In this document: one piece after another, positions 7,768-12,352 of the stretch
How the letters are laid out: each line of letters begins with the position of its first letter
How positions within the stretch are numbered: position 1 is the stretch's first letter
Sequence record: NZ_LC586269.1
DNA length: 59,422 nt
Reading direction: 5' to 3' (one strand)
From: a plasmid
Notes under the pieces: generated by a model
The model's database searches: none
Told to the model about the DNA's origin: nothing
What the model saw: only the letters and a program-made list of their open reading frames with translations
Translations under genes and position numbers: made by a program

Positions 7768-7792
7768 GTGCAGCCGTCTTCTGAAAACGACA
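7768..7792 (-). repeat. IRi, 25-bp terminal inverted repeat of class 1 integron/Tn402 (TGTCGTTTTCAGAAGACGGCTGCAC)
   Basis: Exact 25-mer in reverse complement. Confidence 0.9.
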
Positions 7793-7796
7793 TCTG

Positions 7797-8027
7797 GTGT
7801 TCCTCATTCTCTGGTGGCTGCGCGGCCCGGTGCGCTTTCTTCTCGGCTTGGCTTCGTTCGCCAGTCTCATCACCCTACCGATCATGTGGCTTGGGCTGGA
7901 CTCGGCCAATAAGACCCACATCATGCTATCGGTCGCAGGCGTCGGCCTTGGTGCGTCGGCCCTCATGTGGTTTTATGACGCGCTTCTCATGAGGCTGGCA
8001 CCAGAACCAATCCTATTCAGCACCTAA
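7797..8027 (+). CDS. Hypothetical small membrane protein (possibly a remnant of a gene disrupted by integron insertion)
   Basis: 76 aa, two hydrophobic segments; starts 5 nt after IRi; followed by a terminator. Confidence 0.3.
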   Translation: MFLILWWLRGPVRFLLGLASFASLITLPIMWLGLDSANKTHIMLSVAGVGLGASALMWFYDALLMRLAPEPILFST

Positions 8028-8032
8028 ACGAA

Positions 8033-8059
8033 GGCCGGGCCACTCACCCGGCCTTTTTT
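8033..8059 (+). terminator. Rho-independent terminator (GGCCGGGCCACTCACCCGGCC + T6)
   Basis: GC hairpin followed by T-tract. Confidence 0.55.
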
Positions 8060-8178
8060 GTACGCTCATAGGGCAGAACAAACCAACGTTTTATCTATAC
8101 CGCAACAGGGTATTTAATTCCTATTTAATCTGCGCTAGAATGAGGCATGTTTAACCGAATCTGACGTTTTCCCTGCAA

Positions 8179-8835
8179 ATGCCAAAATACTATGCCTATC
8201 TCCGGGTTTCGCGTGACGGCCAAGACCCGGAAAACCAAAAATACGGTTTGCTCGAATACGCGAACGCCAAAGGCTTCGCGCCGCTACAGATCGAGGAAGA
8301 AATTGCCAGCAGAGCAAAGGACTGGCGCAAGCGCAAGCTCGGAGCAATCATCGAAAAGGCCGAGCGTGGCGACGTGCTACTGACGCCGGAGATTACGCGC
8401 ATTGCCGGTTCCGCCCTCGCCGCCTTGGAAATTCTCAAAGCGGCGAGCGAGCGCGGCCTAATCGTCCATGTGACCAAACAGAAGATCATCATGGACGGCA
8501 GCCTACAAAGCGACATCATGGCAACCGTGCTTGGCTTGGCTGCACAGATCGAGCGGCATTTCATTCAGGCACGTACCACCGAGGCGCTACAAGTCGCCAG
8601 AGAGCGCGGCAAGACGCTCGGGCGACCCAAGGGCAGCAAATCGAGCGCCTTGAAGCTGGACAGCCGTATTGATGAAGTACAGGCATACGTGAACCTTGGC
8701 TTGCCGCAAAGTCGCGCAGCCGAGTTGTTAGGCGTCAGCCCTCACACCTTGCGCCTGTTCATCAAACGCCGGAACATCAAACCCACAAACACTAGACCAA
8801 CCATCACCATGCCGGGGAGGGAACAACATGCCTAA
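8179..8835 (+). CDS. Serine recombinase (resolvase family; catalytic Ser in YAYLRVSRDGQ); its res region lies ~8060-8178
   Basis: 218 aa; N-terminal resolvase catalytic domain and C-terminal HTH; integron IRi ~390 bp upstream (res-hunter-type target). Confidence 0.8.
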   Translation: MPKYYAYLRVSRDGQDPENQKYGLLEYANAKGFAPLQIEEEIASRAKDWRKRKLGAIIEKAERGDVLLTPEITRIAGSALAALEILKAASERGLIVHVTKQKIIMDGSLQSDIMATVLGLAAQIERHFIQARTTEALQVARERGKTLGRPKGSKSSALKLDSRIDEVQAYVNLGLPQSRAAELLGVSPHTLRLFIKRRNIKPTNTRPTITMPGREQHA

Positions 8836-8838
8836 GAA

Positions 8839-8876
8839 GGAGTCGCCTCAGAAAACGGAAAATAAAGCACGCTAAG
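8839..8876 (+). repeat. 38-bp Tn21-subfamily terminal inverted repeat (IRmer; GGAGTCGCCTCAGAAAACGGAAAATAAAGCACGCTAAG)
   Basis: Near-exact match to the Tn21-family IR; immediately abuts the resolvase stop codon. Confidence 0.85.
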
Positions 8877-9327: not shown

Positions 9328-9398
9328 ATCGCTTGACTCCGTACATAACTACGGAAGTAAGCTTAAGCTATCCAATTCAGATTCGAAAGGACAAACGT
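9328..9398. promoter_or_regulatory. mer operator/promoter (dyad TCCGTACATAACTACGGAAG between -35 TTGACT and -10 TAAGCT)
   Basis: Classic divergent merOP architecture between merR and merT. Confidence 0.65.
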
Positions 9399-9749
9399 AT
9401 GTCTGAACCTCAAAACGGGCGCGGCGCGCTCTTCACTGGCGGGCTGGCCGCCATCCTCGCCTCGGCTTGCTGCCTCGGGCCGCTGGTTCTGATCGCCTTG
9501 GGGTTCAGCGGCGCTTGGATCGGCAACTTGACGGTGTTGGAACCCTATCGCCCCATCTTTATCGGCGTGGCGCTGGTGGCGTTGTTCTTCGCCTGGCGGC
9601 GCATCTACCGGCCGTCAGCCGCCTGCAAACCGGGTGAGGTTTGCGCGATTCCCCAAGTGCGAGCTACTTACAAGCTCATTTTCTGGGGCGTGGCCGTGCT
9701 GGTTTTGGTCGCGCTCGGATTTCCCTACGTCGTGCCATTTTTCTATTGA
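9399..9749 (+). CDS. merT: Mercuric transport protein MerT
   Basis: 116 aa from MSEPQNGRGALFTGGLAAILASACCLGPLVL; track ORF over-extended upstream. Confidence 0.9.
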   Translation: MSEPQNGRGALFTGGLAAILASACCLGPLVLIALGFSGAWIGNLTVLEPYRPIFIGVALVALFFAWRRIYRPSAACKPGEVCAIPQVRATYKLIFWGVAVLVLVALGFPYVVPFFY

Positions 9750-9764
9750 TCACAGGAGTTCACC

Positions 9765-10040
9765 ATGAAAAAGCTGCTTTCCGCCCTTGCCCTCGCTGCC
9801 GTTGTTGCCCCCGTGTGGGCCGCCACCCAGACCGTTACGCTGTCCGTACCGGGCATGACCTGCTCGGCCTGTCCGATCACTGTCAAGAAGGCGATTTCCA
9901 AGGTCGATGGCGTCAGTAAAGTTGACGTGACCTTCGAGACGCGCGAAGCGGTGGTCACCTTCGATGATGCCAAGACCAGCGTGCAGAAACTGACCAAGGC
10001 TACCGAGGATGCGGGCTACCCATCATCAGTCAAGAACTGA
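9765..10040 (+). CDS. merP: Periplasmic mercury-binding protein MerP
   Basis: 91 aa; GMTCSAC motif. Confidence 0.95.
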
Positions 10041-10042
10041 TC

Positions 10043-10288
10043 ATGAAAGACCCGAAGACACTGCTGCGGGTCAGCATCATTGGCACAACCCTCGTGGCGC
10101 TGTGTTGCTTCACCCCTGTTCTGGTCATTTTGCTCGGTGTGGTCGGCTTGTCCGCGCTGACCGGCTATCTGGACTATGTGCTGCTGCCTGCGCTGGCGAT
10201 TTTCATCGGCTTGACCATCTACGCCATCCAACGAAAACGCCAAGCCGATGCCTGCTGCACCCCGAAATTCAATGGAGTAAAAAAATGA
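10043..10288 (+). CDS. merF: Mercury transporter MerF (81 aa, two TM helices, CC pairs)
   Basis: [32 protein letters not shown]...; this is merF, not merC. Confidence 0.85.
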
Positions 10289-11940
10289 CCGAAATCACCG
10301 TGAATGGCATGACCTGCACATCCTGCGCCACCCATGTCAAAGATGCTTTGGAAAAGATTCCCGGCGTGAATGCCGCTGTGGTGTCCTATCCAGAAAGCCG
10401 CGCGCAAGTCATGGCAGACACCGCCGTGAGCCACAACCAACTGCTGGCCGCCATCGCCGCATTGGGTTATCAAGGCTCGATCCGGGTTGGTGATTTCAAA
10501 GATGAACCAAAAATCCGTGATGCACTTGAGGGCGCCGGTTTGCATATCGCCATCATTGGCAGCGGCGGGGCCGCGATGGCGGCGGCGCTGAAGGCCGTCG
10601 AGCAAGGCGCGACGGTCACGCTGATCGAACGCGGCACCATCGGCGGCACCTGCGTCAATATCGGCTGTGTGCCGTCCAAGATCATGATCCGCGCTGCCCA
10701 TATTGCCCATCTGCGCCGGGAAAGTCCGTTCGACGGCGGTATTGCGGCAACTGTGCCTGCGATTGACCGCAGCAAACTGCTGGCCCAGCAGCAGGCCCGT
10801 GTCGATGAACTGCGGCACGCCAAATACGAAGGCATCCTGGACGGCAATCCAGCCATCACCGTTTTGCACGGTGAAGCGCGTTTCAAGGACGACCAGAGCC
10901 TGGTCGTCCGTTTGAACGAGGGTGGCGAGCGCGAGGTAACGTTCGACCGCTGCCTGGTCGCCACCGGTGCCAGTCCGGCCGTGCCGCCGATTCCGGGCCT
11001 GAAAGAGTCACCCTACTGGACTTCCACCGAAGCGCTTGTCAGCGACACCATTCCCGCACGCCTGGCCGTGATCGGTTCGTCGGTGGTGGCGTTGGAACTG
11101 GCGCAAGCCTTTGCCCGGCTCGGCAGCCAGGTCACGATCCTGGCACGCAGCACCTTGTTCTTCCGGGAAGACCCGGCCATCGGCGAGGCCGTGACAGCCG
11201 CTTTCCGCGCCGAGGGCATCGAGGTGCTGGAGCACACGCAAGCCAGCCAGGTCGCCCATGTGAACGGCGAATTCGTGCTGACCACCGGACACGGTGAATT
11301 GCGCGCTGACAAGTTGCTGGTTGCCACCGGTCGGGCACCGAATACGCGCAGCCTCGCGCTGGACGCGGCGGGGGTCACTGTCAATGCGCAAGGGGCCATC
11401 GTTATCGACCAAGGCATGCGCACGAGCAACCCGAACATCTACGCGGCCGGCGACTGCACCGACCAGCCGCAGTTCGTCTACGTGGCAGCGGCCGCCGGCA
11501 CCCGTGCCGCGATCAACATGACCGGCGGCGACGCAGCCCTCAATCTGACCGCGATGCCGGCAGTGGTGTTCACCGACCCGCAAGTCGCCACCGTGGGCTA
11601 CAGCGAGGCGGAAGCGCACCACGATGGCATCGAGACCGACAGTCGCACGCTGACACTCGACAACGTTCCGCGAGCGCTTGCCAACTTCGACACACGCGGC
11701 TTCATCAAGCTGGTCATCGAGGAAGGTAGCGGACGGCTCATCGGCGTGCAGGCGGTGGCCCCGGAAGCGGGCGAACTGATCCAGACGGCGGTGCTCGCCA
11801 TCCGCAACCGCATGACGGTGCAGGAACTGGCCGACCAGTTGTTCCCCTACCTGACAATGGTCGAGGGGTTGAAGCTTGCGGCGCAGACCTTCAACAAGGA
11901 CGTGGGGTTGGGGGAGCAACGGAACAGAAAGTGCACTTAA
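10285..11940 (+). CDS. merA: Mercuric reductase MerA with a replaced C-terminus: sequence diverges after ...AAQTFNKDV at ~11904 and the C-terminal Cys-Cys pair is missing
   Basis: N-terminal [11 protein letters not shown] domain, FAD/NAD motifs and redox CVNIGC present; the last ~17 aa ([11 protein letters not shown]) do not resemble MerA; track ORF 10009..11940 over-extended. Confidence 0.85.
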
Positions 11941-12352
11941 GCTCAGTCGCTGCCCCGCAAACCCTTGCAACGTCTGGATAGTTTCGAAAAACGACCGTTT
12001 TATGAAACCGTTTCCGCTATCGCGAGGAAAGGTCACCAACACCCGAAAATCAGTGCAATAAACCTTTCTCACGAATCAAAGTTCGTTAATTCGCAGTCGC
12101 TGACGAGTAAAACGAACTCTAATTCGGCTTACGTTGGTTTTCAGTTCCATTGCTCCCCAACCCCCGTGGCCACGCCTTGCGCGGCAATCGGTGGAGTGTC
12201 TGATGTCATGCCCAAACCTCGCTTTGGTGCACACGAGTATTGAGCATAGTCGAGATTGGTGCAGACGACTCCTGATATTGGGCTGTCAGGAGCCGTATGC
12301 ACACCAGGCGTTACATCCAGTCAGATGGTGCGGTCGTCTTCTGAAAACGACA
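11905..12352. other. ~450-bp fragment resembling the IRt-proximal end of a Tn402/Tn5053-family element, ending in a 25-bp IR-like sequence at 12328..12352 (reverse complement TGTCGTTTTCAGAAGACGACCGCAC; 23/25 to IRi)
   Basis: IR 25-mer seen directly; internal stretch ATGCTCAATACTCGTGTGCACCAAAGCGAGG recalled from integron IRt ends; begins at the breakpoint inside merA. Confidence 0.5.

Follow-up and report, generated by a model that had tools for sequence, protein, structure and literature searches.

Two Tn402-family terminal repeats of different origin in a resistance plasmid: an IncW-derived integron joined, most probably, to an internally deleted Tn5053

We have analyzed a 59,422-nt stretch of plasmid DNA (record NZ_LC586269.1; 'the window' in the following), whose segment 7768-12352 carries two 25-bp terminal inverted repeats (IRs) of the Tn402 family, one (IRi) at the end of a class 1 integron and the other (IRt) some distance beyond a broken merA gene. 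Both repeats are real and stem from two different mobile elements, an IncW-derived integron and the transposon Tn5053, and we consider it highly probable that two unrelated members of the Tn402/Tn5053 family meet within 7768-12352. The reading that we favor, and in which we have great confidence, is that an integron, with a scrap of IncW plasmid backbone attached, adjoins a Tn5053 that is devoid of its IRi and has undergone a 5,134-bp internal deletion, with a Tn3-derived miniature element (TIME) at the deletion joint.

When the whole window was scanned with a degenerate pattern for the Tn402-family IR (up to three mismatches), only two matches were obtained, namely the 25-mer TGTCGTTTTCAGAAGACGGCTGCAC at 7768-7792 (- strand), an exact match representing IRi, and the 25-mer TGTCGTTTTCAGAAGACGACCGCAC at 12328-12352 (- strand), representing IRt. 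Both lie where the initial annotation, made from the sequence alone, had placed them; a third IR was not detected in the window at the same mismatch limit, and 100 shuffles gave 0 chance matches to the pattern. The outer end is on the right in both 25-mers, which puts them in direct orientation, so that they cannot bound one element. The initial annotation had allowed for the possibility that the fragment at the second 25-mer would match no family end past the 25 bp. The family sequence does continue, identifying the 25-mer at 12328-12352 as a genuine terminal repeat of the Tn402/Tn5053 family: identity over 12166-12352 amounts to 100% with Tn5053, versus 84% with an integron IRt end from an IncP-2 plasmid. 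For this reason the second IR is not the lost tni end of the integron, and the proposed separation of the integron's tni end from its cassette half found no support. A check for 5-bp target duplications was run at every end, and none pair: the flanks are TCTGG at IRi, CGAAG at IRt, GACGT/GTGGC at the TIME, and AAGAA/CTTCA at two 38-bp repeats described below. The features of the region are listed here, with integron gene names taken over from the near-identical pNCGM3596 record.

998-7792, - strand: class 1 integron of the In3/IncW type (998-3197 and 6432-7792 match R388), consisting of the 3'-conserved segment (3'-CS; orf5, sul1, qacEdelta1), the cassette array and intI1
6577-7590, + strand: intI1
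7768-7792, - strand: IRi of the class 1 integron, exact match, outer end at 7792
7793-8838, + strand: IncW backbone fragment, 1,046 bp, 100% identical to R388-type and further IncW records
7797-8027, within the IncW fragment: open reading frame (orf) of 76 aa
8179-8835, within the IncW fragment: resP, serine resolvase gene, 218 aa
8828-8838, within the IncW fragment: start of repA, 11 nt
8839-8876, + strand: 38-bp Tn21-type inverted repeat, GGAG variant (2 mismatches), a relic inside Tn5053
8893-9327, - strand: merR, 100% identical to the Tn5053 copies in pSTY and IncP-1 records
9399-9749, within 8893-10288: merT, 100% identical to Tn5053
9765-10040, within 8893-10288: merP, 100% identical to Tn5053
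10043-10288, within 8893-10288: merF, 100% identical to Tn5053
10285-11940, + strand: truncated merA, codons 1-540 native up to 11904, then 11 TIME codons and a stop
11904-12165, + strand: TIME, 262 bp, terminal IRs at 11904-11942 and 12127-12165
12166-12352, - strand: Tn5053 tni end, 100% identical to Tn5053 of pSTY and pVIM_Pse-KSS14
12166-12209, - strand: first 44 nt of tniA, start MTSDTPPIAAQGVA, followed by a 118-bp spacer and then IRt at 12328-12352
12353-12478, - strand: res site from a Tn21-subgroup carrier whose tnpR is missing; present are subsites III and II plus the inner half of subsite I

The continuity of mer and IRt is documented by plasmid pVIM_Pse-KSS14 (MF564291; KSS14 in the following), which agrees with the window in the integron, in IRi, in the IncW fragment and in the way this fragment is joined to the 38-bp repeat and the mer genes, and which then continues through full-length merA, merD, merE, tniR, tniQ, tniB and tniA to IRt. 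Relative to KSS14, the window is short of 5,134 bp, from merA codon 541 to tniA nucleotide 45, with the TIME in their place; lost are the merA tail (8 codons), merD, merE, tniR, tniQ, tniB and most of tniA. The comparison with related VIM plasmids, which had been suggested at the outset, thus yielded the undeleted form, with mer joined to tni through intact genes. The Tn5053 copies used for comparison were those of pSTY, a P. rhodesiae plasmid and KSS14. With them the window shares merR, merT, merP, merF and merA (8839-11904, 100% identical), the GGAG relic repeat, IRt plus the tniA start (100%) and the location of IRt in a res site. Homology to Tn5053 merA stops at 11904, at the breakpoint estimated in the initial annotation. 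The window differs from the complete transposon by the absence of IRi (TGTCACTTTCAGAAGGCGACAGCAC in pSTY, not found in the window), of the last 8 merA codons, merD, merE, tniR/Q/B and tniA beyond 44 nt, and by the presence of the TIME at the joint. With the tniA-tniB-tniQ-res-tniR module reduced to 44 nt of tniA and a 25-bp IR at one end only, the element ending at 12352 is a remnant and not a complete Tn402/Tn5053-family member.

Initially, the layout had been likened to the mer-IRt arrangement in Tn21. In Tn21 with its integron In2, the integron IRt stands beside the intact mer operon of the carrier. The window likewise has a Tn402-family IRt and a mer operon on one molecule, but the IRt is of the Tn5053 type, merA is broken, and the integron IRi is in the wrong orientation to pair with the IRt ending at 12352; mer and IRt are, given their continuity in KSS14, opposite ends of a single Tn5053 that has undergone an internal deletion.

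The truncated MerA is identical to that of KSS14 over 540/540 residues and divergent thereafter; Pfam domains were found, and the native C-terminus KQLSCCAG is lost. In MerA, the active site receives Hg(II) from the C-terminal cysteine pair, on which resistance in vivo depends. MerA without this pair is thus predicted to confer impaired mercury resistance, and the mer operon as a whole, with merD and merE gone as well, would be crippled.

The 262-bp element at the joint has terminal inverted repeats of 39 nt (77% complementary) and no ORF of at least 80 aa within it. Copies of 261-262 bp with 100% identity occur at unrelated places in many Pseudomonas plasmids (PLSDB), and this presence at multiple sites marks it as mobile; a second copy was not found in the window. 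Of the approximately 450 bp following the merA breakpoint that had been described as IRt-proximal-like, only the 187 bp at 12166-12352 deserve this designation, whereas 11904-12165 is a separate TIME; 11905-12165 was dropped as tni-end sequence once the identical free-standing copies had been found. Our assignment is by description (size, IRs of the Tn5044/Tn5563 type, no ORF) and not by the sequence of KJ920397 to KJ920399. TIME1 to TIME4 (Szuplewska et al. 2014) were reported as elements of about 262 bp with IRs of about 38 bp and no transposase gene (PMC4133298), and the window copy agrees with them in its 262 bp, its IRs of about 38 bp starting with GGGG, the lack of an ORF and the occurrence in Pseudomonas plasmids. 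It differs in having no target duplication (flanks GACGT and GTGGC), as would be anticipated if a deletion had taken place. Copies of TIMEs that lack direct repeats and lie between unrelated truncated genes have been reported as common, with only four database copies having direct repeats (PMC4133298). As a separate observation, 38 nt between tnpR and res of pSTY (L002 7970-8007) are 87% identical to the inner part of the right-hand TIME repeat (window 12126-12163), and it is precisely at the boundary of the sequence equivalent to these 38 nt of pSTY that the Tn5053 IRt of the window is inserted.

Beyond IRt, the res site at 12353-12478 terminates with the core GGTATACCCTA (12468-12478), at which the plasmid backbone sets in. 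Its part 12353-12450 is 98% identical to the res region beside tnpR of the Tn21-subgroup carrier in pSTY, and 12353-12478, when reversed, is colinear with the full res site upstream of the Tn1696-type tnpR at 52664-53224. Tn5053, a mercury-resistance transposon and res-site hunter according to Kholodii et al. (1993) as cited in PMC8905914, is inserted in the same res site in pSTY, flanked by the direct repeat GCCTT; a Tn21-subgroup res site is a normal Tn5053 target. In the window, IRt is located just past subsite III, at the tnpR-proximal edge of the res site, which implies that the lost IRi lay toward the lost tnpR, in the usual orientation. The 5 bp on the IRt side are CGAAG, and the flank on the IRi side is gone. 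Just beyond the res site, a GC-rich unit of 105 bp forms 2.3 tandem repeats at 12497-12733; three more copies of this unit are present 13 kb away at 25544-26005, and many in related P. aeruginosa plasmids.

The left half of the region has a different source. IRi is separated from intI1 by 177 bp and from resP, on its other side, by 386 bp; the resP product matches Pfam Resolvase (E = 6e-24), in agreement with the serine resolvase gene noted at about 390 bp in the initial annotation. The segment 6432-8838, comprising intI1, IRi, the 76-aa orf, resP and 11 nt of repA, forms one ungapped block with R388 (99.9%, three mismatches), and the IRi 25-mer plus its flank TCTGGTGTTC is found in R388 and KSS14 as well. 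The gene order in R388 is sul1, qacEdelta1, cassettes, intI1, IRi, 76-aa orf, resolvase gene and repA; R388 homology ends exactly at 8838, 11 nt into repA, and the 3'-CS at 998-3197 matches R388 at 99.7%. In sum, the parts shared with In3 of R388 are contiguous at 99.7-99.9%, while the cassettes differ, the IncW backbone of the window stops 11 nt into repA and its 3'-CS, at the distal end of the integron, is cut by ISPst3. Neither tni genes nor an IRt follow the 3'-CS in the window, as had been stated at the outset and as the IR pattern scan bears out; In3 of R388 has IRi but no tni genes and no IRt either.

Res-site hunters preferentially insert with IRi nearest the resolvase gene (PMC7765201; bioRxiv 10.1101/2020.12.23.424275). 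The orientation of IRi toward resP fits the proposal of a res-hunter target, but the resolvase gene was not a local target, since the match to R388 runs without a break through 6432-8838; because of this contiguity, the res-hunter junction is inherited from the IncW ancestor. The insertion beside resP would accordingly have been made in that ancestor, with the resolvase gene as a passenger, and the integron appears to have lost its tni end there already. The TCTGG outside IRi has no partner repeat, and the absence of an IRt from R388 leaves the insertion in the IncW ancestor without direct-repeat proof.

At 8839, where the IncW fragment ends, the sequence reads GGAGTCGCCTCAGAAAACGGAAAATAAAGCACGCTAAG, the outer end of the 38-bp repeat being joined directly to IncW DNA. 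In complete Tn5053 (copies of pSTY and the P. rhodesiae plasmid), this GGAG repeat (GGAGTCGCC...) lies 39 bp inside IRi and starts 64 bp from the outer end of IRi. The only other 38-bp repeat copy in the window is at 56189-56226, with CTTCA as its outer flank as opposed to AAGAA at the 8839 copy; the latter has neither a paired second end nor a 5-bp duplication, as would characterize a Tn3-family end. The same region carries a Tn1696-type tnpA, whose own repeat differs from the relic repeat by one base. In pPP-DIM-1, a different Tn3-family 38-bp repeat, GGGGAGCCCGCAGAATTCGG..., which we take to be of the Tn1721 type, is joined to the same IncW fragment (L005 6161-6199, corresponding to window 8830/8831). 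This join is 8 bp upstream of the one in the window, i.e., two independent Tn3-type ends lie within 8 bp at the resP/repA boundary.

The anatomy described so far and the existence of the undeleted form are matters of direct comparison; the historical steps are what we infer. Through res-site hunting, a Tn402-like integron ancestor would have entered an IncW plasmid at a site about 390 bp upstream of resP, its IRi facing the resolvase gene; tni and IRt would later have been lost in the IncW plasmid. Tn5053 would have inserted between res and tnpR of a Tn21-subgroup carrier, with IRi toward tnpR. A Tn3-family transposase may then have used the 38-bp relic repeat as an end, joining it to the start of the IncW repA gene and discarding IRi, which would account both for the end of the IncW DNA at the first base of the 38-bp repeat and for the missing Tn5053 IRi. 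Finally, the TIME, driven in trans by a Tn5563-type transposase, may have deleted adjacent DNA by intramolecular replicative transposition, our preferred mechanism for this step and a process expected to leave one TIME copy and no target duplication.

Several points weigh against this reconstruction. No target duplication is left for any of the four proposed events, and each is represented by one junction. A Tn5053 with the TIME simply inserted in merA or tniA was not found in PLSDB. The relic 38-bp repeat starts with GGAG and not GGGG, its use by a transposase is putative, and the loss of mercury resistance is a prediction from sequence. The sequence outside IRt in KSS14 differs from that of the window, which leaves the order of events around IRt unsettled. 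Moreover, the 5,134-bp deletion could equally stem from homologous recombination between two direct TIME copies, one at merA codon 540 and the other at tniA nucleotide 44. A lone TIME with non-matching flanks is the expected product of such an exchange, and the authors of the TIME study proposed it for copies located between the ends of different genes (PMC4133298). It would, however, demand two independent insertions in one 8-kb transposon, although TIMEs are usually single-copy (PMC4133298); intermediates with one or two copies were not found in PLSDB, and neither flank is AT-rich, whereas captured TIMEs went into AT-rich DNA (PMC4133298). We regard this route, the main alternative for the deletion step, as possible but rather unlikely.

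The other alternatives are far less probable. If the 25-mer ending at 12352 and the sequence preceding it were the detached tni/IRt end of the class 1 integron, in a Tn21-like layout, this would account for two repeats of one family and for an integron without an IRt of its own. We give hardly any credence to it, considering the 100% identity of the IRt end to Tn5053 as opposed to 84% to an integron IRt end, the continuity in KSS14 of IRt with the same mer operon through the full tni module, the match of the integron and its flank to R388 In3, already devoid of IRt, and the direct orientation of the two IRs. Slightly less remote, though still very improbable, is that the mer genes arrived beside resP as part of a complete Tn21-type mercury transposon by two-ended transposition, the IRt fragment having come separately: the IncW junction does coincide exactly with the outer end of a Tn21-type repeat of 38 bp, but this repeat has the GGAG start that Tn5053 copies show, the identity of merRTPFA to Tn5053 is 100%, mer and tni are joined in KSS14 exactly as in Tn5053, and the outer 5 bp AAGAA do not agree with the CTTCA at the only other 38-bp repeat in the window. 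The chance that the junctions are assembly artefacts, i.e., chimeric joins at repeats in a region rich in repeated mobile elements, is close to nil, as the string merA-TIME-tniA'-IRt-res recurs, with 99.6-100% identity, in seven plasmids that were deposited separately (LC586262 to LC586268) and the IncW-to-38-bp-repeat join is also present in KSS14. We therefore retain the reading of an IncW-derived integron, with its scrap of IncW backbone, adjoining an internally deleted Tn5053.

The plasmids LC586262 to LC586268, the pNCGM3596 group, share the whole region including the TIME joint at 99.6-100% and differ in backbone and cassette order; in PLSDB, the merA-to-TIME join occurs in these records only. 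KSS14 differs by its undeleted Tn5053 tail and the other sequence outside IRt. Among species-representative genomes, neither the merA-to-TIME nor the IncW-to-38-bp-repeat join gave a match, and in JGI metagenomes the TIME-to-tniA and IncW-to-38-bp-repeat joins gave zero matches as well. Our literature search found no paper naming the deletion derivative, nor any on pNCGM3596 or KSS14.

Truncated Tn5053-type tni ends with a neighboring miniature element have precedents. In Tn6604, a 262-bp kappa-gamma element directly abuts the tniA remnant beside IRt, and kappa-gamma is among the listed components of the defective Tn6606 (PMC7765201). Tn6604, Tn6606 and Tn6607 resemble the window in having IRt-tniA' remnants in or near res sites (PMC7765201). 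Their breakpoints differ, with a 1141-bp tniA remnant in Tn6604, a 522-bp IRt-tniA' segment, and a breakpoint 118 bp from the IRt terminus, compared with 187 bp in the window; their TIME is a variant with 82% identity to that of the window, and several of them keep both IRs and direct repeats, whereas the window element has lost IRi. A TIME abutting a shortened Tn5053 tni end is also seen in pWW0, with about 0.5 kb of IRt-tniA' left, and in QKH54, with 118 bp left, against the 187 bp of the window. It is the same TIME end that abuts the IRt end in pWW0 (L011 3000-3783), QKH54 (L012 3000-3379) and the window (11904-12352); the pWW0 and QKH54 TIME copies are identical to each other (262/262), with different left flanks. 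The window is thus a further example of a recurrent association in which a TIME borders a truncated tni end of Tn5053. Every component is of a known family, and the window represents a further defective Tn5053-family remnant.

As to functional consequences, the integron and the mer remnant each appear immobile on their own, and what is left of mer and tni is probably an immobile scar of poor function; any mobility would rest on the neighboring Tn3-family genes and res sites. This is an ordinary scar in a resistance plasmid that resolves no open question, and the main value of its dissection is one of annotation, namely which parts of this VIM plasmid can still move. It also illustrates how an integron platform derived from IncW, normally an enterobacterial plasmid type, has been carried into Pseudomonas plasmids.

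The junction region is part of a resistance region of about 19.4 kb, extending from 52534 through the origin to 12478, that is common to the window plasmid and pNCGM3596, whose backbones differ. Both edges of the region in the window (52534-52544 and 12468-12478) fall in the 11-bp core GGTATACCCTA of a backbone res site located upstream of the resolvase gene at 51811-52431. CP027175 has this backbone res site uninterrupted, and the two flanks overlap by 14 bp. In pNCGM3596, the region has perfect 95-bp inverted arms on either side (L009 38047-38140 and L001 12523-12625), in the manner of a Tn3-type transposon, and the unit as a whole is flanked by the 5-bp direct repeat AAATC; each arm combines a 38-bp repeat (GGGGGGCATAGAGAAAACGG...) with 57 bp and one half of a palindromic res site I. 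The empty target site is present in plasmids related to pNCGM3596; a free-standing palindromic miniature element, considered as the pNCGM3596 target, was not found, as only empty sites without the element turned up. The window contains no copy of the pNCGM3596 arm repeat. The layout suggests conservative recombination at res cores as well as transposition, and we tentatively raise the possibility that the region entered the window plasmid by resolvase-catalyzed recombination at GGTATACCCTA of the multimer-resolution site instead of by transposition. With res sites in mutually inverted orientation at the two edges, a single simple crossover would be insufficient to generate the layout. If the idea were correct, large resistance modules could alternate between transposition and a site-specific mode of insertion into the res sites of plasmids.

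Two further observations concern the cassettes and KSS14. In the integron of the window, two aadA1 cassettes (263-aa ORFs; 3236-4027 and 4731-5522) flank an aac(6') cassette, a cassette order that differs from pNCGM3596, which has two blaVIM-24 copies instead. KSS14 harbors a 759-bp non-autonomous element (L013 39681-40439) that is bounded by the pNCGM3596-type arm repeat and contains a res site and a small ORF, without a transposase or resolvase gene.

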